From Candidatus Woesearchaeota archaeon (lineage in GTDB: Archaea; Nanobdellota; Nanobdellia; Woesearchaeales; ARS49), in NCBI GenBank assembly GCA_016188265.1, contig JACPID010000001.1:1674-65673 (forward strand): a stretch of DNA of 64,000 nt, in the 5' to 3' direction. The position numbers and the translations under genes were made by a program. The notes beneath the pieces were generated by a model, which did not search any database, was not told where the DNA came from, and worked only from the letters and a program-made list of their open reading frames with translations. Positions 2,958 to 54,593 of this stretch are shown here, one piece after another (positions within the stretch are counted from its first letter, which is position 1; each line of letters opens with the position of its first letter).

Positions 2958-3807
2958 ATTTTATTGCTGGGTGGCTTTGATAATTAACAATCTTTGTATT
3001 ATTATGAGTCCAATTCCAGATTGATGTAAAGTTTTCAGTAATGATTTCAGGCAATTGCAATGGTTCTCTTTTTAATTGTTCTTCAGATCTTTCAATATGG
3101 TTTAAGTAAATATGTGTGTCTCCTAAAAATCCTGTTAATGTTCCTTCTTTTAAATTAGCCTCTTTTGCTAACAAGTGCAGCAGTGTTGCATAACTTGCAA
3201 TATTAAAAGGCAATCCCAACATTGTGTCTACGCTTCTTTGATACCATATTAAATCTAGTTTTCCACTCTGCACTATTGTTTGATATAATAAATGGCAGGG
3301 AGGTAATGCCATTTGATCTAACTGTTCAGGATTCCAAGAACTTACAATTATTCTTCTATCATTGGGCTTATTTTTCAATTTATCAATCATTTGTTCTAAT
3401 TGATCAACCCCTTTTCTAGTATAATCTGTTTGTTCACCAACATAATCTGCATTCCAGTGCCTCCATTGAAATCCATAAATTGGTCCTAAATCTTGTTCTT
3501 CTAACATTTTTTTTTTTGTTTCACCATCATGAGAATAAGGCACTTTCTTAGGATTGCACCATTCATCCCAAATATGACATCCATTTTCTTGATACCATTT
3601 CTTGTTAGTTATCCCTTTGATAAAGCCCTCTAATTCAACTTTCACACTTTTATAAGCCATTTTTTTTGTTGTTAATAAAGGAAATCCTTGACTCATATTG
3701 TGTTGAAATCTTTCTCCAGTTATACCTATTGTTCCAACACCAGTTCTATCTAGTTTTTCAACACCATTTTCCAAAATGTTTTGAACAATTCTTAAGTATT
3801 CTTTCAT
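2941..3807 (-). CDS. thyA: thymidylate synthase (folate-dependent ThyA)
   Basis: ThyA motifs: PLLTTKK, catalytic-Cys region LPPCHLLYQ, FNIASYATLLHLLA. Confidence 0.85.
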   Translation of the reverse strand: MKEYLRIVQNILENGVEKLDRTGVGTIGITGERFQHNMSQGFPLLTTKKMAYKSVKVELEGFIKGITNKKWYQENGCHIWDEWCNPKKVPYSHDGETKKKMLEEQDLGPIYGFQWRHWNADYVGEQTDYTRKGVDQLEQMIDKLKNKPNDRRIIVSSWNPEQLDQMALPPCHLLYQTIVQSGKLDLIWYQRSVDTMLGLPFNIASYATLLHLLAKEANLKEGTLTGFLGDTHIYLNHIERSEEQLKREPLQLPEIITENFTSIWNWTHNNTKIVNYQSHPAIKFEIAV

Positions 3808-3811
3808 GTTA

Positions 3812-4642
3812 TCATTTCTTTTTCAAATCTTTCGACAATCTTGGAAGCATTGCATAAGGCGTCCATGACGATTTTAATTCTTCAAGAGTTTTTCCCTGCT
3901 GATATTTTCCTTTTGAAGTATAATCATCACCTAATATTTCTTCTACTTCCATAAAAACAACTTGCCCGATTTTTGCTCCAACTGGAAGCACTATCTTTTT
4001 ATCAGAATTATTTGTTATTTCTAAAGTCCACCTGTTAAAATAAGGCACATCTCCCCATCCTGCGCATTTTGCTATTTCTATAAAATTGCGCCCCCATGAA
4101 GAGCGCGCTTTCATCATTGTTGTAACATTTCTTCCACTGCCACCAATATACTCTTGAGTGTGCGCAAGAATTGTTTCTTTTGGTTCAAGTAAAATGATTT
4201 GAGAATTAGGAGTTACTAAAGTGTTTTTTCCAAAAACATCTTCAAAAAAAAGTTTTGTCCATGCTTGATGTCTTGCGTATGTTTGTGATCTTAATTCTTC
4301 AAATAATTCCAGTGCAGTTTTAGCATATAAAGGTTCACCCCATACCTTGCTTACATGTTCATCATTATAAGGGTTATAAATATTAAATGGAAGCTCAACT
4401 TTCTGTTCTCTGAAATAATTTTCTCCAAGAGAAACATCATAGCTTGATGTGTTTAATTTTTTTTCATCAAATGGGTGTATTGTTATTGTTTTATTTTCTA
4501 AATGCCTTAAAATTGCAGTGTTTGAAAGCACAGATCGTGTTCCATATTTTTCAACAAGTGAATTAATAACTAGTTTTAATTTAGGTTCAATATCTAATTC
4601 TTTAATTAATTCTTCTAGATCTTTTTTAGTTAAATCTGCCAT
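3812..4642 (-). CDS. dcd: dCTP deaminase family protein (long form)
   Basis: C-terminal half aligns by eye with E. coli Dcd: ARSSWGR (GRSSLAR) and GWGDVPYFNRWTLEITNNSDKKIVLPVGAKIGQVVF. Carries an N-terminal extension of about 70 aa. Confidence 0.65.
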   Translation of the reverse strand: MADLTKKDLEELIKELDIEPKLKLVINSLVEKYGTRSVLSNTAILRHLENKTITIHPFDEKKLNTSSYDVSLGENYFREQKVELPFNIYNPYNDEHVSKVWGEPLYAKTALELFEELRSQTYARHQAWTKLFFEDVFGKNTLVTPNSQIILLEPKETILAHTQEYIGGSGRNVTTMMKARSSWGRNFIEIAKCAGWGDVPYFNRWTLEITNNSDKKIVLPVGAKIGQVVFMEVEEILGDDYTSKGKYQQGKTLEELKSSWTPYAMLPRLSKDLKKK

Positions 4643-4759
4643 AAAACCATCCTTTTATACAAAAATACTGACTATGCTTTTTAATGTTTTATAGTGTTAA
4701 ATTTGTAGGTTAAATACTTTATTTTAGAATCTCGCTTTTTATTTTCTTGTCTTGAAATT

Positions 4760-5071
4760 TCATGATTTAACACTCATTTCTAACAGTTTTGGGTTATGCG
4801 TCCATAATACCGAACCATCTTTATCAATAACTATTTTCCCAGAACTTTCCAAATAATTAAGAATTATTTTAAAAGTTTGATACATTATTTTTTTAGGTAA
4901 AGACTTCCATAACTGCATCTTATTAGGATACTCTCCTGATTTTTTAATTGCATTTTCTACCATTAAAATAGTATCCAAACGAGGATAATGTATAACTTCA
5001 ACTTTTTGTTTTTTCATTAATAATTGCATTTCAACCACCTTGCATAAACTTATATAATTATATAAACGCAT
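4760..5071 (-). CDS. small winged-helix-like protein, paralog of 15575..15859
   Basis: PRLDTILMVENAIKKSGEYPNKMQLWKSLPKKIMYQTFKIILNYLE matches PTLDTVLMVERIIEENSGEYNRTELWKNLPRKVMWQTFLVILDYLE at the second locus. Confidence 0.5.
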   Translation of the reverse strand: MRLYNYISLCKVVEMQLLMKKQKVEVIHYPRLDTILMVENAIKKSGEYPNKMQLWKSLPKKIMYQTFKIILNYLESSGKIVIDKDGSVLWTHNPKLLEMSVKS

Positions 5072-5193
5072 ATAATATATAAATCTTTTGTTTAAAAACC
5101 AGAAAAACTCACCATATCTTTAGCGAGTTGTAAATTTGCAAATCTCTTGTGTTTCTTTGAGTAAATAGCTTTTCTATAAATATTTAGAGAGAA

Positions 5194-10671: not shown

Positions 10672-11543
10672 CAACTCAAATTCAATCTCATATCTTGCTG
10701 TTATAGATTCAATACATCATCCTTCACAAACATCTCTACTGAAAAACAATCCTGAGCATTGATTATTTGTTTTTTATTTAAATCAAGTAAAATATATCCT
10801 CCGTCTAAGCTTGATTTTTTTGAGACTGATGAAAGTATTCTTTTAATATCATTTTTTAGCAAGGTTATTATTTTTGTGTAATGTGAATTAATAGTGTATA
10901 TGTAATTTTCATGAATTATTATAAGTGTTACATAACTCATAAAAGTAGTTTAAAATAATCATTTAATTGTGTTGTGGAAAATTTTTTGAAAAATAAACAA
11001 TTGATCTAAAATTATTCTAATATTTCCACAATTTTTACATTAGAAGTTAATCCTGACAGAATCTTTACTGATTTACCGGTGTATTTATGCAGGAATTTAA
11101 GCAGTTCTAAATTTGCTTTTTAGTTTCTGGCTGGTTTGATTTAACTTTAATTGTTATTCGCATATTAGTTATAGTACGCGCCATAATTTGTAGGACACTC
11201 TTTATGACGCGTACTATTTAGAAAACGAAACTATTGTCCTATTATTTATTTCGTTTTCTATTATTTTAAAGTAAAATATTCAACACCGCACCATTCCAAG
11301 CTATAATCATACTTATGCTCTTCAATTGAATGAATAAATTCTATTATTTCACCGGGTTCAAGAACTCGGTATGCAACAATATCCTCCAATTTACACTTTT
11401 CATGAGTTAATGCACGAGTTACTCCATAACCAATACACATTTCTATTGATTGTTTACTTTGATCTGGAATTTTTTGAAACCATTGCCCTAATGACTTATA
11501 ATCTGATGAGTAACATTTAGGTATTTCTTTTTCTTAGAAAATT

Positions 11544-19556: not shown

Positions 19557-20291
19557 ATGATTGACAAATATAGTGAAGTTTTGAAAGAGTTTGGACTTTC
19601 AGAAAATGAAGTTAAAGTATACATAACTCTGTTAAAAACTGGAGAATCCGGTGTTCAAAATCTGGCTAAAAATGCAGGACTTCCAAGAACAACAACATAC
19701 CACCTCCTAGAAAGCTTATCACAAAAAGGTCTTGTAAGCCACATCGATAAAAATAAAATAAGATACTTCCAAGCAGCAAATCCTAAAATAATTCCAGAAA
19801 TTCTTGAAGAACAGAAAAAACACATCAAAGAAATAATTCCAGAACTCTTAACAATCGCAGAAACCTTTACAGAAAAGCCCAAAGTTGAAGTTTACGAAGG
19901 AATCAAAGGAATAAAAACAATTCTGGAAGACACACTAGAAACAAAAAAAGAAATACTTCATTATGGAGACATAATATCTTTACAAAACTCATTAAAATAC
20001 ATATTTCCTCAATTTATCAACAAAAGAGTAGAAAAGAAAATACCAATCAAAATACTCTGCAAAAAAGAAGCAGCACACAAAGAATTACTAGAAACAGCTA
20101 AAAAACAATACCGAGAATTCAAATTTATACCATCAAACTACACATTCAAATCAAGCATATTCATCTACAACAAAAAAGTAGCAATACTAAGCCTTCAACA
20201 AGAACCATACTACGGAATCATAATAGACAACGAGGATTTTCACCAAACACAAAAAAACATGTTCGAACTATTATGGCAAACAAAACACTAA
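19557..20291 (+). CDS. TrmB-family HTH transcriptional regulator (paralog 3)
   Basis: LSENEVKVYITLLKTGESGVQNLAKNAGLPRTTTYHLLESLSQKGLVSH. Strongly A/C-rich coding strand. Confidence 0.7.
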   Translation: MIDKYSEVLKEFGLSENEVKVYITLLKTGESGVQNLAKNAGLPRTTTYHLLESLSQKGLVSHIDKNKIRYFQAANPKIIPEILEEQKKHIKEIIPELLTIAETFTEKPKVEVYEGIKGIKTILEDTLETKKEILHYGDIISLQNSLKYIFPQFINKRVEKKIPIKILCKKEAAHKELLETAKKQYREFKFIPSNYTFKSSIFIYNKKVAILSLQQEPYYGIIIDNEDFHQTQKNMFELLWQTKH

Positions 20292-20358: not shown

Positions 20359-20486
20359 TGTCAAGAACCACTGGTCAATAGACCAGTGGCATGAAACTTA
20401 GGTTTCAGCATCCAGTGGTTCTTGAGCACACCAAGATTCCACTACTAAACCACTAGTGAAACACTAGTGGAATCTTAGTGTTTGAA
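20359..20486. repeat. structured intergenic repeat element, copy A (inverted-repeat termini plus a second composite hairpin)
   Basis: Inverted repeat TGTCAAGAAC...GTTCTTGAGCA closes an ~70-nt hairpin, followed by a second composite hairpin. Same termini and two-hairpin architecture as copies B and C. Confidence 0.6.
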
Positions 20487-20559
20487 ACATTATCTTCACC
20501 ACAAACCACCAACCATAAACCACAAACTAATTAAATATTACTTCTGGTTCTGCAAGTAA

Positions 20560-21645
20560 ATGCTGACAATAGATGGCTCTTATCTTGAAGGCGGCGGGCA
20601 GATTGTTCGTACTGCTGTTGGAATGTCTGCTTTGCTTGGAGAACCAGTTAAAATAATTAATATTAGAAGAAATAGGCCTAATCCAGGATTAAAAGCTCAG
20701 CATTTGCATGCAGTTAAAGCTTTGCAAGAACTTTGTGATGCTGATGTTGTTGGTTGTAAAGAAGGTTCTGATGAAATAATTTTTGCTCCAAAACAATTGA
20801 AAGCTAAAACATTAAATATTGATATTGGAACTGCTGGATCAATAGGTTTAGTGCTTCAGGCTATTCTTTTACCGTGTTGTTTTCTTGATAAATCAATTAC
20901 AATTCGTTTGAAGGGAGGTACTCATGGTAAATGGGCGATGCCTATTGAGTATATTCAAAATGTTTTAGTGCCTCATATTCAGAGATTTTGTGAAAAAATA
21001 AGCATTAATCAAGAAAAAAGAGGGTATTATCCTGCAGGAGGTGGAAAAGTTGAAGTTAAGATAAAGCCATTAATACATAGAGAAGAGTATAGTAAAGAAG
21101 ATTTCTTGAAAAAAATTGAAGAATTAAAACCAATACAATTGTTAAATCAGGGAAAGCTTTTATTTATTAAGGGAATTTCTCATGCATCAGCTTCTTTAGC
21201 AGAACGTGAAGTAGCTGAAAGACAGCTAAAATCAGCAAAAAATATTTTAAAAGAATTCAATGTTCCTGTTAATATAAGTGTTGAGTATAGTGATGCAATA
21301 TCAAAAGGTTCTGGAATTGCTTTATGGGCTGTTTTTGAAAATAAATATGGGGAAGTTGATCAGTTTAATCCTGTTATTCTTGGTTGTGATGCATTAGGTG
21401 AAAAAAATATTTCTGCTGAAAGTGTAGCAGGAATTGCTGCAAAAGAATTATACAAAGAAATAAAACAAAATGCTTGTGTTGATAGGCATTTAGCTGATAA
21501 TCTTATTCCTTGGATGGGCTTGCTTTCTGGAAGTGCATTTAAAACAAGTCTTATAACAGATCATACTAAAACAAATATTTTTAGTGTGGAAAATTTTTTT
21601 GGAAAAATGTTTAAAATTAATGAGAATGTAGTGAGAAGAATTTAA
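20560..21645 (+). CDS. rtcA: RNA 3'-terminal phosphate cyclase
   Basis: MLTIDGSYLEGGGQIVRTAVGMSALLGEPVKIINIRRNRPNPGL is the typical RtcA N-terminus; length 361 aa. Confidence 0.8.
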   Translation: MLTIDGSYLEGGGQIVRTAVGMSALLGEPVKIINIRRNRPNPGLKAQHLHAVKALQELCDADVVGCKEGSDEIIFAPKQLKAKTLNIDIGTAGSIGLVLQAILLPCCFLDKSITIRLKGGTHGKWAMPIEYIQNVLVPHIQRFCEKISINQEKRGYYPAGGGKVEVKIKPLIHREEYSKEDFLKKIEELKPIQLLNQGKLLFIKGISHASASLAEREVAERQLKSAKNILKEFNVPVNISVEYSDAISKGSGIALWAVFENKYGEVDQFNPVILGCDALGEKNISAESVAGIAAKELYKEIKQNACVDRHLADNLIPWMGLLSGSAFKTSLITDHTKTNIFSVENFFGKMFKINENVVRRI

Positions 21646-24535: not shown

Positions 24536-26365
24536 TTAAGCGTTTTGGTTGACAAATTGCTGTATTTCTTTCATGTAATTTAAAGAAGATATAAGATTCC
24601 ATTCTCTTGGAAATAGTTTTTTGTATCTTGGCCAGTCATATCTTTCATCTAAAAATACCAACACTCCTTTATCTTTTTCATTTCTTATGCATCTCCCTGA
24701 ATTTTGAAGTGTTTTAGTTATAGCTGGAAGCGTGTATCCATAATCCCATCCTTTGCCAAATAATTCATCATAATATTGTATTAATTCTCTAGACCTAAGA
24801 TTAGGTTTATCTAAAGGGAGGCCAATAACTATTACACATTTGTTTATTCCAGGGAGATCTATCCCTTCGCCAAAAGAACCTGTTGCAGTACATAACATTA
24901 CTGCTCCTTTATAACTCGAATATTTTTTAAGTAATTCTTCTTTTTGTTTTTTTTGCAAGTTAGGCTGCTCAAAAAGAATTGTTTTGTTGCTATATTCTTG
25001 AAAGAAAAAAGCCACGTCATCACGAATTTTGTAGCTGGGAAAAAACAAAAGACTATTTCCATGAATTTCATTGGTTATTTGTGCACAAATTTCTGCAATA
25101 TTTTTATACTGCTCTGGTGATCTTAAAGTAAACTTTGTTGTTGTTTTAGGAATTATCAAAGTGAGCTTGTTTTTTTCAGGAAATGGAGAACTGTATTCTT
25201 GCTTAAAAGTTCCATCTTGAAAACCCAGCACATCCTGATACATTATTGTTGGAAGAAGTGTGCCTGACATAATAATCATAGAATGGCATTGATTAATTAC
25301 CGGCTTTGTAATAATTGAAGGATCTAAGCATTGCAGAAAAATTTTAACATTTTCTTTTTCTTTTTTCACATAGCGAATAAATCCTTTTTCACCTTCAGGC
25401 CATTTTTTAAGAAAGCTTGCAATTACTCCCAGAGAACTTTGCTTTTGTTCATTTCTCACTAAATCTGCACTTGTTTCTAGCTCTGCAATAAATTGCTGCA
25501 GAGGTTTTATTTTATCAATTTCATTTACTAAAAATTGTGATGATATTTTTTTTTCTTCGTCAACTAATTTACTCCCTATTTGTTGAATTAAATGAAGCAA
25601 TTCTATAAGTGGAAGAATAACTGGTTCTATATTGTACTTTTTTGCTTCTTTTATTGCACGCTGAATAATATTTGTACTTAATATAGAACTCATTAAATCT
25701 CTGACTCTTTCAGGAAGATTGTGTGCTTCATCAACTATAACTATGCAGTCTTCAAGATTCTTATTAATCTTGCTTAAAAAGTTCTTCCTTATTGATTCAT
25801 TAAAAATGTAAAAATAATCTGCAATAATTATTGTAGAATTACTTGCCAAGTGTAATGCGCTTTCATATGGGCAAATTTTGTGCTTCATTGATGTTGTTAC
25901 AATATTTTCAGTTGTTGGAATAATTTGTAATAGTTCATCATTACAAACTGAAACTTTTGTTTTAGATTTAGAATTCAAATAATATTCACATTTCTCGTCT
26001 TCACGTAAAGAACGGCAAAACTCAACAAAATCTTGTGTTGGCATTGTTGAAGCACCTTCTTGCGCACACATCCATTTTTTTCCAATAAAAGAAGCAACAT
26101 TGAAGTTTACACAATATTTTTGCTTAATATTTTGAACAGTTTCAAGAACAATTTTGTGTTGAGTGTGCCTTGATGTTAAAAATAATATTGTTAATTTTTT
26201 TTCAAGAGCAGCAGTTAGCGCAGGTGAAAGAGATGCTGCAGTTTTTCCCATTCCAGTGGGAGCGTGGATAATTGCATGTTTTTTTTGTTGAATAACTTGA
26301 AAGATCTCTTTCATAATCTGCTCCTGAGTAGGACGCAGTTTTTCATATGGGAAAAAAAAAACCAT
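24536..26365 (-). CDS. xpd: XPD/Rad3-family 5'-3' DNA helicase (FeS domain)
   Basis: Walker A HAPTGMGKT, DEAH, four-Cys FeS cluster (CAQE...FC...KCEY...VC), C-terminal VLVFLDERY block. Confidence 0.7.
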   Translation of the reverse strand: MVFFFPYEKLRPTQEQIMKEIFQVIQQKKHAIIHAPTGMGKTAASLSPALTAALEKKLTILFLTSRHTQHKIVLETVQNIKQKYCVNFNVASFIGKKWMCAQEGASTMPTQDFVEFCRSLREDEKCEYYLNSKSKTKVSVCNDELLQIIPTTENIVTTSMKHKICPYESALHLASNSTIIIADYFYIFNESIRKNFLSKINKNLEDCIVIVDEAHNLPERVRDLMSSILSTNIIQRAIKEAKKYNIEPVILPLIELLHLIQQIGSKLVDEEKKISSQFLVNEIDKIKPLQQFIAELETSADLVRNEQKQSSLGVIASFLKKWPEGEKGFIRYVKKEKENVKIFLQCLDPSIITKPVINQCHSMIIMSGTLLPTIMYQDVLGFQDGTFKQEYSSPFPEKNKLTLIIPKTTTKFTLRSPEQYKNIAEICAQITNEIHGNSLLFFPSYKIRDDVAFFFQEYSNKTILFEQPNLQKKQKEELLKKYSSYKGAVMLCTATGSFGEGIDLPGINKCVIVIGLPLDKPNLRSRELIQYYDELFGKGWDYGYTLPAITKTLQNSGRCIRNEKDKGVLVFLDERYDWPRYKKLFPREWNLISSLNYMKEIQQFVNQNA

Positions 26366-26478
26366 AGATCTTGCTCTTCACAAGCATTTATAATATTTTC
26401 TGGCTAATAAAATTTTAATTTCGAAACCTTTAAATATATGGTGCAGTATATTCATTACAATATTAAGATTAGGGGTGT

Positions 26479-26631
26479 GTCAAGAACTACCTATTAAATT
26501 AGGCAGCGTGTTTTCACACAGCTACTAAATCATCTGGTAGTTCTTGAGCATGATCAAAAATCACTTGTCATTTTTACTGATTAAAATCAGTAGTGTATGT
26601 TAAGGGTGATTTTTGACATGTCAAAAACATG
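26479..26631. repeat. structured intergenic repeat element, copy B
   Basis: TGTCAAGAACTACC...GGTAGTTCTTGAGCA hairpin followed by AAAATCACTTG...GGGTGATTTTT hairpin with inner TACTGATTAAAATCAGTAG stem. About 85% identical to copy C over the 5' half. Confidence 0.6.
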
Positions 26632-26947
26632 CCAAAAATTGCATGTTTTTATAAAAATATTAAGAAGGTGGTTTGCTTTGAAAAATAAAGAAATTTTTAA
26701 AACATTTTTTAGAGAGAAACCAGCTATGATGTTGGTTCACTTGCGTAATGCAAAGTCAGAAGTATATGCTTCTTCTTTAGCAAAACAAATTGATTGCACA
26801 TATTCTCATGTTGTAAAAGTTCTTCAAGAAATGCAGAATGAAGAATTAATTAATTTTGACAAGCAAGGCAGATTAAAGCTGCTTTCTTTAACAAAGAAAG
26901 GACAAGATGTTGCAAATAAAATTACAGATATAAGAAATTTGTTATAA
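26597..26947 (+). CDS. small winged-helix transcriptional regulator (start uncertain)
   Basis: YSHVVKVLQEMQNEELINFDKQGRLKLLSLTKKGQDVANKI wHTH. The N-terminal part of the ORF overlaps repeat copy B, so the true start may be the internal MM near 26726. Confidence 0.45.
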   Translation: MLRVIFDMSKTCQKLHVFIKILRRWFALKNKEIFKTFFREKPAMMLVHLRNAKSEVYASSLAKQIDCTYSHVVKVLQEMQNEELINFDKQGRLKLLSLTKKGQDVANKITDIRNLL

Positions 26948-36997: not shown

Positions 36998-37386
36998 TTC
37001 TAGTTCTTGATACTTCAATACTCATAGAATTAGAAAGAAAAAATATATCAGTTATTGAGAAGCTAAGAAAATATGTTGAACTATATCCATCTCCTGCACA
37101 AATAACATTTATGAATTATTTTGAATTTTATCATGGTTTGCAGAATAAAAATATTAAGAATAAGGAAAAGGTTCTCTCTTTTATTAATAAATTTAACATA
37201 CTAAAATTAACTAAAGAAACCGCAAAGTTTCTAAGTGATTTAAAGACCAAATATGATAATCAGGGTATTTCTATTTCATTGGCAGATCTAATAATAGCAA
37301 GTCAAGTTATAGAGAATAATCTTATATTAATAACATTAGATAAAGATTTCGAAAAAATAAAAGAATTAAAAAAGATAATTTTGTGA
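36994..37386 (+). CDS. vapC: PIN-domain ribonuclease VapC toxin
   Basis: MILVLDTSILIE with conserved acidic positions. Ends 1 nt before tRNA-Leu. Confidence 0.65.
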   Translation: MILVLDTSILIELERKNISVIEKLRKYVELYPSPAQITFMNYFEFYHGLQNKNIKNKEKVLSFINKFNILKLTKETAKFLSDLKTKYDNQGISISLADLIIASQVIENNLILITLDKDFEKIKELKKIIL

Positions 37387-37470
37387 TGCAGGAGGCAGGA
37401 TTCGAACCTGCGAAGGCACTAAGCCAACAGCTCTTGAGGCTGCCACGTTTGACCACTTCGCTACTCCTGC
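37387..37470 (-). tRNA. tRNA-Leu (anticodon CAA), no encoded CCA
   Basis: Reverse complement folds as GCAGGAG acceptor, D arm, anticodon stem GCAGC / loop CTCAAGA / stem GCTGT, long variable arm, T arm GCAGG-TTCGAAT-CCTGC, discriminator A. Confidence 0.85.
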
Positions 37471-37548
37471 ATAAAACAAGTAAAAGATCAATAAAATATA
37501 AATGTTTACTTAAAAACCTTTAAATAATTAGAAAAATCTAGTACGTTA

Positions 37549-50870: not shown

Positions 50871-51563
50871 ATGCGTTTTAAAAATATTATGTTAATAGGC
50901 ACATCACATATTGCAAAACAAAGTGTTCAAGAGGTTAAAAGAGCAATTGAGGAAGAGCGTCCTGAAATTGTTGCATTAGAGCTTGATCCTAAAAGGCTTC
51001 AAGCATTGTTTAGTAATAAAAAAGGAAGTAGATTAACTTGGAAAGATATTAAAAAAATAGGAGTAAAAGGCTGGCTGTTTTCTATAATTGGTTCATGGAT
51101 CGAGCATAAATTAGGCCAAAAAGTTGGAGTTGCTCCTGGTACTGAAATGTTAAATGCATTTAAGATTGCAAAAAAACAAGGTGCAGAAGTTGCATTAATT
51201 GATCAAGATATAGAAATTACTTTGCGTAAGTTTAGTAAAGCATTATCTTGGAAAGAAAAATGGTATTTTATTGTTGATATTGTTAAAGGTTTGTTTGGAA
51301 GAACAGAGATAACTTTTGATATATCAAAAGTTCCAGATGAAAAACTTATTCACGAACTGCTTAAAAAAGTCAAAAAAAGATATCCTAATTTGTATAGAGT
51401 TTTAGTTTTAGAACGCAATAAAGTTATGGCGCGCAGGCTTGCAACACTTTCTGCAAAATTCCCAGAAAAGAATATTGTAGCTGTTGTTGGTGCAGGCCAT
51501 GAAAGTGATATTATTGAATTACTCAAAAAGTATTTAAACAAAAGAACAGACATTATTATATGA
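50871..51563 (+). CDS. TraB/PrgY/GumN-family protein
   Basis: IMLIGTSHIAKQSVQEVKRAIEEERPEIVALELD and a GAGHE block near the C-terminus. Confidence 0.55.
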   Translation: MRFKNIMLIGTSHIAKQSVQEVKRAIEEERPEIVALELDPKRLQALFSNKKGSRLTWKDIKKIGVKGWLFSIIGSWIEHKLGQKVGVAPGTEMLNAFKIAKKQGAEVALIDQDIEITLRKFSKALSWKEKWYFIVDIVKGLFGRTEITFDISKVPDEKLIHELLKKVKKRYPNLYRVLVLERNKVMARRLATLSAKFPEKNIVAVVGAGHESDIIELLKKYLNKRTDIII

Positions 51564-51564
51564 A

Positions 51565-52374
51565 ATGTATAAAGATCAGTTTGTAAATTATTGGTTTTCT
51601 AAACTTTTGCATTTTTTTATTAAAATTAGGCAAAAGTTTAGAACCTACACTTTTGCCAAAATCAAATATAAAATGCAAAAGTGTAGATTTTCTAAAAATG
51701 AGTGGAAAATTTTCATAATAACTGTTTTTTTATTTGCGTTTATGTTTTCTTTTAATGAATGGGGTGTTGAAAAATTTGATTTAATAATTGGGTTAGAAAA
51801 TTATTTGCTTGCGTTATTTATTGTAGGATTATCAGTTTTTGTTCATCATTCTACTCAACGCATTACTGCGATCTTGCTTGAGTATAAGCCAGAGCATAAA
51901 ATATGGTGGCGTGGTTTAATAATAGGATTAATTATAACTATTATCACAAATGGAAAATTTTGGTTTTTTGCTGCAAGTTCGTTTTGGATTTTAATTCCTG
52001 AAAAAGGCAGGTTTAGGCGTCCTTCTGGGCCAAATATGAAAGATTTTGCAATAGCTTCTTTAAGAGGGCCTTTGTCTAATGTTGCTTTAGCAGCTTCAGT
52101 TAAAACACTTTCTTGGATTATTCCTATTAATGAATTATTTGTTCAAAAATTATTTGTATTTAATTTATTGTATGCTTTTTTTCAATTGCTTCCAATTCCG
52201 CCTCTTGATGGTAGCCGAGTTTTTTTTGCTTCAAGGCAATGGTATGTTCTTTTAGTTGGTTTTTTTCTATCTTATATTTTTCTTTTTGCAGTGTTTAGTA
52301 TATTTTCATTTATATGGGCATTTTTAATTGCTTTTATAATTTGGTTCTTATATTACACTTTTGTGGAATTATAG
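51565..52374 (+). CDS. polytopic membrane protein
   Basis: Multiple TM helices; no HExxH motif. Confidence 0.4.
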   Translation: MYKDQFVNYWFSKLLHFFIKIRQKFRTYTFAKIKYKMQKCRFSKNEWKIFIITVFLFAFMFSFNEWGVEKFDLIIGLENYLLALFIVGLSVFVHHSTQRITAILLEYKPEHKIWWRGLIIGLIITIITNGKFWFFAASSFWILIPEKGRFRRPSGPNMKDFAIASLRGPLSNVALAASVKTLSWIIPINELFVQKLFVFNLLYAFFQLLPIPPLDGSRVFFASRQWYVLLVGFFLSYIFLFAVFSIFSFIWAFLIAFIIWFLYYTFVEL

Positions 52375-52694: not shown

Positions 52695-53743
52695 AAAAGA
52701 TTTTGGCTGAGTTTAAAGTAAACTATATTCAAGTACTTGATGAAAGAGGTGAAGTGGACAAAAAATTAATGCCAAAATTTTCAAAAAATCAAATTAAAAA
52801 TATGTATTAATTAATGCTTTTAACTCGTGCTTTTGATGAAAAGGCTCTTTTACTTCAAAGGCAAGGGCGTTTGGGAACTTATGCTGTTTCAAGAGGCCAA
52901 GAAGCTGCGCAAATTGGTTCTGCTTTAGCTTTGAAAAATGATGACTGGGTTGTGCCAAGTTTTCGTGAGCAGGGTGTTTTTATTGCATTGGGATATCCTT
53001 TGCACCAGTTATACCAGTATTGGGGTTGGGATGAGAGAGGTATGAATATTCCTAAAAAATTTAGTATTCTTCCAATTACTATTCCTGTTAGCGCTCAAAT
53101 TCCTCATGCTGTTGGAATTGCATATGCATTAAAGTTAAGAAATGAAAAAAAAGTAGTTGCATGCTATTTTGGTGATGGGGGAACAAGCAAAGGAGATTTT
53201 CATGAAGGCCTAAATATGGCAGGTGTGTGGGCTCTTCCTGTTGTTTTTATTTGCCAAAATAATCAGTGGGCAATAAGTGTTTCTAGAAAAAAACAAAGTG
53301 CTTCAAAAACATTGGCGCAAAAAGCTATTTCTTATGGATTTGAAGGTATTCAGGTTGATGGCAATGATGTTTTTGGTATTTACAAGGTTGTTTCTGAAGC
53401 TGTAAAAAAAGCAAGAAGCGGAAAAGGGCCTAGTTTAATTGAGTGTTTTACTTACAGAATCGGAGATCACACAACTTCTGATGATGCTTCACGTTATCGT
53501 TCAAAAAAAGAAGTTGAAAGCTGGATTAAAAAAGATCCTATTGAACGCTTAAGAAAGTATATGAAAAAAAAAGAAATGTGGACAAAGATGTATGAAAAAC
53601 AATTGAAAAAAAAAATAGGCAAACAAGTAAAAGAAGCTGTTGAAAGATTTGAAAAAATCCCTAAACAAAATCCAGAGGAAATGTTTAGATATGTTTATGC
53701 TGAAATGCCTTGGTTTTTAAAAGAAGAGATGAGAGATATATGA
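52691..53743 (+). pseudogene. pdhA: 2-oxoacid dehydrogenase E1 alpha subunit interrupted by an in-frame TAA at 52808..52810
   Basis: The upstream 39 codons (MKKILAEFKVNYIQVLDERGEVDKKLMPKF...) and the listed ORF LMLLTRAFDEKALLLQRQGRLG are in one frame. Together they reconstitute the conserved E1alpha N-terminus. The TPP motif YFGDGGTSKGDFHEGLNMA is intact. Confidence 0.6.
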
Positions 53744-54489
53744 GTATTTTGCAAGTTATGAATTTAGGATTGAAAAGATATTATGAAGTGTTAAAATTAC
53801 AAGAAGAACTTGTTAAAAAAAGATTGGAAAATAAAATTCCTGATACTCTTATTATAACAGAACACCCGCCTGTTATTACTTTTGGCTTTAATAAAAAGTG
53901 GAATAAAATGCATGTATCTATTGATGAACTTGCAAAAAGAGGTGTTGAATTTTATTATTCATCAAGAGGTGGAGGTGCTACTTGTCTGGCTCCTGGAACT
54001 ATTGTTTGTTATACAATTATTGATTTAAATGAAAGAAAAATAAGTATTGGCAATTATATGAATCTTATTGAAAAAGTTATGCTTAATGTTTTTAGTTCAT
54101 ATAATCTTAAGGCATATATTCGTACAGGTTTTAATCCAACAACACAAAGGCCTTATAAGGGTGTGTGGTATTTTTATAATGAAAAAGAAAATAAGTTAGG
54201 TGCAAAAGGAGTGTTTATTAAAAAGTGCAATGGAAGAGATGTAACAATGTATGGATTTTCAATGTATTTTAAAAAAGAAGGTTTGCAATATTTTGATTTA
54301 ATTGATCATTGCGGGTTTAAAAGAGAACAAGTAGGTGTGATTTCAATGGAAGATATACTAGGTTATACTCCTAATAAAGAAGATGTTGTTAAAAAAATTG
54401 TTGAGAGTTTCAAAAAAGAGTTAAATTATGATTTTGTCAAGAACTACATACTAAAGGAGGTAGCGTGTTTACACACAGCTACAAAATGA
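53740..54489 (+). CDS. lipoate-protein ligase / octanoyltransferase family protein
   Basis: BPL/LPL catalytic-domain layout with SRGGGATCLAPGTI. The last ~18 codons lie inside repeat copy C. Confidence 0.55.
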   Translation: MSILQVMNLGLKRYYEVLKLQEELVKKRLENKIPDTLIITEHPPVITFGFNKKWNKMHVSIDELAKRGVEFYYSSRGGGATCLAPGTIVCYTIIDLNERKISIGNYMNLIEKVMLNVFSSYNLKAYIRTGFNPTTQRPYKGVWYFYNEKENKLGAKGVFIKKCNGRDVTMYGFSMYFKKEGLQYFDLIDHCGFKREQVGVISMEDILGYTPNKEDVVKKIVESFKKELNYDFVKNYILKEVACLHTATK

Positions 54490-54575
54490 TCAAGTAGTTC
54501 TTGATCACTGTTGAAAACTGCTTGTCGTTTCTACTGACTTAAGTCGGTAGTGTACCTCAAGAGCAGTTTTCAATG
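54435..54575. repeat. structured repeat element, copy C, overlapping the 3' end of the lipoate-ligase gene
   Basis: TGTCAAGAACTAC...GTAGTTCTTGATCA hairpin; block GGTAGCGTGTTTACACACAGCTACAAAATGATC matches copy B (GGCAGCGTGTTTTCACACAGCTACTAAATCATC). Second hairpin TTGAAAACTGCTTG...CAAGAGCAGTTTTCAA with inner CTACTGACTTAAGTCGGTAG. Confidence 0.6.
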
Positions 54576-54593
54576 TATTAAAGGTGAAATTGT

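Follow-up and report, generated by a model that had tools for sequence, protein, structure and literature searches.

The DNA analysed here, which we call the window, is a stretch of 64,000 nucleotides from contig JACPID010000001.1 of a Candidatus Woesearchaeota archaeon. A protein of the window is annotated under that name (locus tag HYV79_), in agreement with the DPANN-like host proposed by a first-pass annotation made from the letters alone. Three look-alike elements, copies A, B and C, lie on the + strand. Copy A is found between the gene of a TrmB-like regulator and rtcA, copy B in a divergent region between an XPD-like helicase gene and a winged-helix gene, and copy C within an E1alpha-LplA-E1beta-E2 operon, where it separates a lipoate-ligase-like (LplA-like) gene from that of E1-beta (Table 1). 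The first-pass annotation had described them as a three-copy family, which greatly understates its size, since the family is spread over DPANN lineages. In our view A, B and C probably belong to a dispersed family of bipartite palindromic DNA repeats, common among DPANN archaea, that are non-autonomous and moved by an enzyme acting in trans.

Three copies in the window

The window contains three matches to the two-arm pattern TCAAGAAC-N30-60-GTTCTTGA, whereas 100 dinucleotide-preserving shuffles contain none. Moreover, a profile built from the copies of other genomes only returns exactly A, B and C (E = 1e-22, 8e-13 and 1e-7), with no fourth site in the 64 kb. Each copy consists of two adjacent long hairpins whose minimum free energy z-scores range from -5.5 to -8.4 on either strand, the first hairpin being closed by TGTCAAGAAC.AC / GT.GTTCTTGA.CA, and the GC content of the elements is 33-41%, versus 30.5% for the genome.

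The first-pass annotation had placed the three copies well, with limits that needed small adjustments: copy A is bounded as in Table 1, and relative to the claimed extents B loses and C gains a few bases. Its arm sequences were right, except that the 3' arm reads GT(G/A)GTTCTTGA and not G(N)TGGTTCTTGA. The similarity of about 85% that it gave for B and C over their 5' half compares with a measured identity of 83% over hairpin 1 (67% over hairpin 2). It was also correct in that copy A keeps the termini with a different interior, A being 50-67% identical to B and C and having mainly the closing arms in common with them. The inner stem-loop TACTGA..TCAGTAG, which had been ascribed to all three, is present in B and C only; copy A has the different hairpin CCACTAGTG-AAA-CACTAGTGG. 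Copies B and C are of the 'GCTAAAGC' type and copy A is of the 'GTCAATAGAC' type.

Weak inverted repeats are numerous in AT-rich genomes, and in two Logan contigs the sequence begins 12-30 nt beyond copy A, so that chance palindromes or an assembly artefact (a collapsed or chimeric repeat) had to be considered. This explanation has virtually no chance of being right and can be taken as already refuted, given the three pattern matches where none is expected and the outside profile that finds exactly these three sites. Furthermore, copy B is base-for-base the same in two independent Logan assemblies (L001 and L002; loci are cited by L numbers), and therefore is no assembly artefact. More than 100 homologous copies exist in 65 metagenome-assembled genomes (MAGs) from many studies.

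Table 1. Elements, neighbouring genes and further features of the window
Feature	Position	Strand	Remarks
Copy A, whole element	20359..20488	+	Type with GTCAATAGAC inner hairpins
Copy A, module 1	20359..20428	+	Closing stem TGTCAAGAACCAC / GTGGTTCTTGAGCA; inner P2 hairpin CCACTGGTC-AATA-GACCAGTGG and P3 hairpin TGAAAC-TTAG-GTTTCA
Copy A, module 2	20428..20488	+	Stem ACACCAAGATTCCACTA / TAGTGGAATCTTAGTGT; 3' tail TTGAAAC; inner hairpin CCACTAGTG-AAA-CACTAGTGG
TrmB-like regulator gene	19557-20291		One side of copy A
rtcA	20560-21645		Other side of copy A
C/A-rich tract	20497-20530		caccacaaaccaccaaccataaaccacaaac (CCAC/AAAC units); 3' of copy A, 5' of rtcA
Copy B, whole element	26478..26626	+	TAAA/CTGAAG-loop inner hairpins
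Copy B, module 1	26478-26550	+	
Copy B, module 2	26549-26626	+	
XPD-like helicase gene	24536-26365	-	Divergent region of copy B
Winged-helix gene	26597-26947	+	Divergent region of copy B
Copy C, whole element	54435..54582	+	B type
Copy C, module 1	54435-54507	+	
Copy C, module 2	54506-54582	+	
LplA-like ORF	53710-54489	+	Last 17 codons and TGA stop (54436..54489) from copy C
tRNA-Leu(CAA) gene	37385-37471	-	
Cluster of 13-mers	51597-51687		Four GCAAAAGT[TG]TAGA, alternating orientation
ORFs at the 13-mer cluster	50871-51560 and 51565-52371		Cluster at their junction
Region without ORF >=80 aa	10672-11543		872 nt
Inverted repeat	11171-11217		16 nt, near-perfect, GC-rich; ATAGTACGCGCCATAA / TTATGACGCGTACTAT
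Region without ORF >=80 aa	41190-41978		789 nt

Beside copy A, the CCAC of the C/A-rich tract is also the junction motif within the element, and the L001 and L002 contigs both break 3' of the copy at window positions 20505-20518.

Anatomy and dispersal of the family

The wider family was collected by scanning one genome per prokaryotic species for the exact 21-base pattern GTCAAGAACNAC-N35-60-GTNGTTCTTGA, which gave at least 114 stretches; the search thus required exact module 1 arms. The 120 sites analysed comprise the three of the window, 113 from archaeal MAGs and four GC-rich planctomycete sequences that lack the architecture. Among the matches listed, 65 archaeal MAGs contribute at least 113 more sites of this architecture; these MAGs are labelled as Woesearchaeota, Pacearchaeota, Nanoarchaeota/Nanoarchaeia and Aenigmatarchaeota, and in some cases as 'Methanosarcinales', an unverified label that we suspect to be wrong. 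With a length of about 130-170 bp, no coding content, three copies per 64 kb here and at least 113 sites elsewhere, the element is as short, non-coding, multi-copy and dispersed as a classical miniature transposable element with inverted repeats (MITE).

At heart, a module is one long palindrome that encloses an inner hairpin and has a variable insert on one side. The two modules, of 60-90 nt each, lie in direct orientation. Module 1 reads TG-TCAAGAACCAC ... GTGGTTCTTGA-(G)CA. Directly 3' of its 5' arm stands the P2 hairpin, which is either CCACYRGTC-AAWA-GACYRGTGG or CCACCTGC-TAAA-GCAGGTGG, followed by CATGA or CGTGA and then by a variable hairpin and a linker. Module 2 runs from CATG(c)TCAGAAAT.. 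to ..ATTTCTGA-CAT, after which a 3' tail with the logo W-T-N-A-A-A is seen. The inner hairpin of module 2 is of the same type as the P2 hairpin of the same element, from which it differs by compensated changes; over both modules the types are the CCACYRGTC form given above and C[CT]AC..GCTRAAGC..GT[AG]G, with GCTRAAGC and GTCAAWAGAC as conserved inner loops. P2 starts 9 nt from the left end, and its paralogous counterpart lies about 20-25 nt from the right end. The left end itself, TGTCAAGAA, has an approximate inverse, TTTCTGACA, 8-10 nt inside the right end, and the strongest inverted repeats close each module separately, not the whole element.

Nested and deleted derivatives of this plan are also present. 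Plain long palindromes stand for module 1 in L073 and for module 2 in L036, L042, L018, L056 and L085, while L108 contains, at 4038-4072, the 5' half of module 1 fused to the 3' half of module 2 through two inner hairpins. Extra small TCAGAA..TTCTGA hairpins lie between or inside the modules of L092, L114, L028, L098, L111 and L112. In L004, L027, L051, L054, L057, L065, L081 and L082 the P2 loop is enlarged by some 20 nt that contain the motif (A)TCGCTCGCT-N3-6-GCTCGCTCAA, a further nested module.

The sites are scattered. Intergenic positions account for 116 of the 120, and the flanking genes are divergent in 28 cases, both on the minus strand in 26, both on the plus strand in 24 and convergent in 15. 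The 150 nearest neighbour proteins fall into 126 Pfam families, none of them occurring more than four times and none a transposase. Of some 5000 locus pairs drawn from different genomes or sites, not one has both flanks in common, and the 13 pairs with a homologous gene on the same side all differ in strand or distance. The ends are sharp, nothing being conserved upstream of position -1, and on the 3' side conservation ends about 9-10 nt after module 2.

Copies are nevertheless closely alike at these unrelated sites. Elements of different species reach 88-91% identity (L108 and L067, for example), L088 holds two copies that are 100% identical over 166 nt at a distance of 3.1 kb, and pairs of 91-99% identity occupy unrelated sites within six further MAGs. 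Mean identity is 0.76 within a MAG versus 0.64 between MAGs; for the 58 elements with another copy in their own MAG, the best match lies in that genome in 35 cases and in a different one in 23. This indicates that subfamilies amplify locally and are common to several species.

Some observations on individual loci may be added. Between the identical copies of L088, positions 3007-5127 encode a 706-aa ORF (open reading frame) without Pfam match; with its N-terminal hydrophobic segment, C-terminal Cys-rich CGN-L-E-GE-C repeats and hydrophobic tail, the product resembles a protein that is secreted or displayed at the surface. In about a dozen MAG contigs (L021, L023, L029, L030, L047 and L061 among them) a copy lies no more than about 200 nt from the contig end, and the repeat family appears to fragment assemblies. 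In the GC-rich bacterial Phycisphaerales MAG DAOVLE01, the same arms of 13 nt, CATGGTCAAGAACCACC...GGTGGTTCTTGACCATG, recur in another palindrome, a perfect one, with at least three copies and no module 2 (L072:3420-3481, L086:2891-2952 and L096:88-149); it may be distantly related, or belong to an unrelated repeat family that matches by chance. A link to viruses was considered and rejected, all three pattern matches in IMG/VR being chance occurrences within GC-rich coding regions.

Arm pairing and strand symmetry

The first-pass annotation had claimed a conserved structure with compensatory changes, and this holds in more than 100 copies. A module 2 closing stem (10 nt, with at most one mismatch) is found in 102 of the 120 sites, versus about 6% by chance, and its positions 1-10 are paired in 95-100% of elements within the same element versus 28-61% with the 3' arm of another one. 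The 3-bp extension beyond a bulged C, which had not been used to find the arms, is fully Watson-Crick in 55 of 62 cases and exists in four types (ATG/CAT, ACA/TGT, GTG/CAC and ACT/AGT). RNAalifold on a MAFFT alignment of whole elements recovered the module 1 stem and nothing else, because the variable interiors misalign module 2, and pairs were therefore counted on arm-anchored extracts. In these, 96.1% of the cells are paired and 14 of the 15 pairs show changes on both sides, it being noted that 10 of the 15 had served to locate the arms. Double-change cells number 184 versus 48.5 ± 6.2 in shuffles (none of 500 reaching 184), the covariation score is 0.641 versus 0.065-0.144 with the partners slid, and one-sided changes affect only about 1% of the cells.

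The module 1 arms are uninformative in the main set because the search had fixed them. However, profile searches of these loci turned up additional copies, not selected by their arms, with the compensated arm variants GTCAAAAAC/GTTTTTGA (L013 and L021) and GTCAACAAC/GTTGTTGA (L041). The first-pass annotation is thus right that the structure is conserved and changes are compensatory. The T at position -1, before GTCAAG, also belongs to the module 1 stem, where it pairs and covaries with the A of GCA (U-A 66, C-G 8, U-G 3).

Such palindromes might be dispersed sites for a host DNA-binding protein (a nucleoid protein, a replication factor of the origin-recognition-box type or a global regulator) bound as a dimer. 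The strand-symmetric, near-perfect palindromes with conserved outer arms would fit, as would their intergenic and often divergent promoter positions (28 of 93), and we take CCAGTGGAA to resemble the core of archaeal origin-recognition boxes, which is a lead only. Nevertheless we judge this explanation highly unlikely. Dimer sites conserve sequence and not arm covariation, while here four pair types are seen at many positions; arms that stand 45-60 variable bases apart have no normal operator geometry; the positions of copies are not conserved between genomes; and the identical and nested copies indicate copying instead of site-by-site selection.

Covariation that supports a fold is also what is expected from a non-coding RNA, and the first-pass annotation had offered a functional RNA as one of its two explanations. 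The elements would then be a structured RNA family or a cis-acting mRNA element, such as a stabiliser or processing site, with the two hairpins as its functional fold, bound by a conserved DPANN protein. The very stable folds, the massive covariation, the conserved inner loops, a GC content above that of the genome and the presence in several lineages are all consistent with this, and copy C must be transcribed if its operon is read through. Yet the signals that would distinguish one strand are missing. Base pairs in the stems of module 2 number 1307 for Watson-Crick, 30 for G·T and 42 for A·C, so G·U is not favoured over A·C; the two strands fold equally well, mean folding energies with RNA parameters being -56.9 kcal/mol for the + strand and -58.1 kcal/mol for the - strand; the + strand folds better in 47 of 101 elements; and the G·U share of pairs is 5.6% for the + strand, compared with 6.9% for the - strand. 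No conservation, and no TATA or B recognition element signal, is found from -2 to -45 upstream of the elements, and no consistent terminator was seen 3' of them. The window copies and a consensus-like copy match no Rfam family even at E = 10, apart from miRNA and snoRNA noise. Together with the lack of gene-orientation preference, conserved neighbour or synteny, and with the occurrence of nested and truncated copies, this makes an RNA function unlikely. The arms of a DNA palindrome can be kept complementary by selection for hairpin recognition and, in principle, by templated repair within it, and covariation does not discriminate between the two. Orientation-independent effects on mRNA have been reported for the repetitive extragenic palindromes (REP) and bacterial interspersed mosaic elements (BIME) of bacteria; similar effects may occur here and would be a by-product.

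More specific candidates were also rejected. A riboswitch or leader, or a promoter donor, is at odds with neighbour genes that are not enriched and downstream genes that are not co-oriented, despite the TATA-like T-W-T-N-AAA tail, and guide RNAs of the C/D and H/ACA classes were ruled out by their sequence motifs, read directly. As to that tail, the 3' end CAT-W-T-N-AAA is often TTTAAA or TTTATAA, like an archaeal TATA box pointing outward (window 20477-20488, L021, L023, L027, L047 and L101, for example), but genes downstream of it show no preference for its direction. The Rfam gathering score is reached in the window by tRNA-Leu alone, and the tRNA-Leu(CAA) gene is the sole RNA gene detected in the 64 kb.

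Proposed mobility and relation to known repeats

The data show many copies at unrelated sites, sharp ends, nested and deleted derivatives, pairing that is kept and strands that are equivalent; from these we infer how the element would move, by what kind of enzyme and with what side effect on the host. It would multiply as DNA and land in intergenic DNA without duplicating its target, its folded hairpins, in single-stranded DNA or as a cruciform, being recognised by an enzyme supplied in trans. The mode may be like that of REP elements and their doublets (REPIN), of elements derived from IS200/IS605, or of other hairpin-dependent elements. We consider it the likeliest one, since target duplications are missing, both strands keep their pairing and two paralogous inner hairpins lie near the two ends of one strand.

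Copy C offers a view of one putative insertion. The LplA-like ORF takes its last codons and its stop from copy C, and its Pfam domain, which extends to residue 235 of 259, stops short of copy C; at NCBI it is the 249-aa hypothetical protein HYV79_00385. In 17 related loci the E1-beta gene follows the upstream gene after 0-20 nt and without the element, whereas in the window some 150 additional bases intervene, which correspond exactly to copy C. With GTCAAG...GTATTAA taken out of the sequence, ...NYDFR-TGA would result and overlap the ribosome-binding site AGGTGA of E1-beta, which suggests that copy C is an insertion in a tight operon. The argument is suggestive only, because identity to the nearest relative is 71%, orthology of that relative's upstream gene is not clear and no close relative of this genome was found. 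Such an insertion would have rewritten the C-terminus and stop codon of the lipoate-ligase-like gene and put a pair of hairpins of roughly -50 kcal/mol (RNA parameters) into a 2-oxoacid dehydrogenase operon; a stable hairpin in the LplA-E1beta transcript is a possible side effect.

Several results weigh against a mobile element of this kind. The only close homologue of the window LplA is that protein itself, and with the nearest E1beta locus as distant as described no true pair of filled and empty sites from closely related strains was found. Target-site duplications, a check proposed in the first-pass annotation, are not seen: none of 2-5 bp exceeds a permutation control over 4 x 22 boundary offsets in 97 elements. 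The MITE-like alternative of that annotation is supported in a broad sense, the dispersal pattern fitting and the classical hallmark of a duplicated target being absent, and its functional-RNA alternative is not supported; a classical DDE-type MITE is unlikely. No transposase or autonomous relative with the same ends was found in 0.82 Mb of loci or in the window, and the genes between paired copies (L038, L088 and L012) have housekeeping products (TIM, PTH2 and an aminoacyl-tRNA synthetase) or encode a putative surface protein. When 0.89 Mb was searched by tblastn with IS608 TnpA as query, nothing appeared at E < 1, and no Y1 family is present among the neighbour Pfam families listed for the 8-kb tiles around the copies. 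Element orientation is split 42 to 53 with respect to local GC skew (p = 0.3; 8-kb skew, a weak proxy), whereas IS200/IS605 and REP elements have an orientation bias. Finally, 12-nt arms conserved over phylum-level lineages are unusual for MITEs, which tend to be taxon-specific (PMC11602168), although this conservation is overstated because the search demanded exact arms. A search for an autonomous element through distant partners of unclosed module 2 arms yielded only a nested insertion in L112.

A more far-reaching alternative is an undescribed propagation system in which an unrecognised enzyme conserved across DPANN lineages moves or copies, with no duplication of the target, a bipartite folded single-stranded substrate whose two paralogous inner hairpins are held by the long closing stems, or else a domestication of the hairpins for a host function; in the latter case they could serve transcript processing or stability, or chromosome organisation in reduced genomes. 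Either would explain why arms and loop motifs are kept where neutral intergenic DNA is unalignable. We regard this alternative as tentative and rather doubtful.

Among described families, the non-autonomous repeat proposed here is closest to several at once. Like REP/BIME and REPIN elements, which are mobilised by REP-associated tyrosine transposases (RAYT; IS200/IS605-like Y1 HUH enzymes), it forms multi-copy extragenic hairpin palindromes with maintained pairing, lacks target-site duplication and occurs in either orientation to genes, and it is likewise a mosaic of few motif types, in which the number of extra hairpins between modules varies (L092 and L114 are examples). However, REP units are 20-40 nt long and usually form inverted pairs, whereas the DPANN modules have 60-90 nt with nested hairpins in direct orientation. 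A REP system would include a RAYT gene flanked by the repeats; the 0.89 Mb of DPANN loci and window gave no RAYT/Y1 match with the IS608 TnpA query. REP families stay within one species group while the present family occurs in several archaeal lineages.

Classical prokaryotic MITEs (Correia, Sulfolobus and haloarchaeal elements) are likewise small, non-coding, intergenic and multi-copy, with subfamilies and near-identical copies within a genome. The DPANN repeat also has loosely inverted ends, TGTCAAGAA on the left and the reverse complement of TGTCAGAAA near the right. It differs from them in that it has no target-site duplication, its right inverted repeat lies 8-10 nt inside the end, its strongest inverted repeats close the halves, and no parent insertion sequence was found in the loci searched. 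Palindrome-associated transposable elements (PATEs), which are derived from IS200/IS605 and known from haloarchaea and Geobacillus, resemble it in that insertion causes no duplication and two similar sub-terminal hairpins lie on one strand. PATEs insert 3' of a conserved 4-5 nt target in the left flank, whereas the DPANN left flank is unconserved and T(-1) pairs with GCA. Moreover, by local GC skew, a weak proxy, no replication-strand bias was detected for the DPANN repeat, no TnpA or TnpB lies near it, and its long outer closing stems have no counterpart in PATEs. The BOX elements of Streptococcus pneumoniae share the modular A-B(n)-C build, the stable predicted fold, the intergenic dispersal and the lack of a known mobilising enzyme; their sequences and hosts are unrelated, and BOX modules are not individually palindromic as the DPANN modules are.

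The attC sites of integrons, which have also been reported from Archaea, are imperfect palindromes with conserved structure, conserved outer arms and a variable interior. They were rejected as candidates, the arms CAAGAAC / GTTCTTG not fitting the RYYYAAC / GTTRRRY core sites, and no cassette arrays or nearby integrase being present at sites whose neighbours are housekeeping genes.

In the literature, the arm sequences led to unrelated primers only, and no work on palindromic or intergenic repeats in Woesearchaeota was found. A MITE-Tracker census lists a woesearchaeal genome among those with the highest archaeal MITE densities (105/Mb), without description of the families (PMC11602168). The DPANN repeat, previously uncatalogued, is best filed as a small non-autonomous palindromic repeat, mosaic like BIME and BOX and duplication-less like PATE and REP; by their defining features it is a member of none of the four. 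No result points to a new principle.

Some further features of the window may be mentioned. The four 13-mers listed in Table 1 form overlapping inverted repeats at the junction of two ORFs and look like an operator or other protein-binding cluster. The two long regions devoid of ORFs of 80 aa or more gave no Rfam match at E <= 0.1, and the first of them contains the 16-nt inverted repeat of Table 1.

DPANN genomes are small and streamlined, and their mobile DNA and non-coding repertoire have barely been described. The repeat family provides a marker for assembly breaks and binning and, with copies about 90% identical between species, a probe of gene flow between DPANN lineages. It also carries a caution for RNA-discovery pipelines, since strong covariation and stable folds here come from DNA palindromes that bear no strand signal. 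Its breadth over DPANN lineages, its two-module design and the missing enzyme make it worth following, and the family gives a handle for finding the enzyme that would move hairpin-shaped DNA in these archaea.

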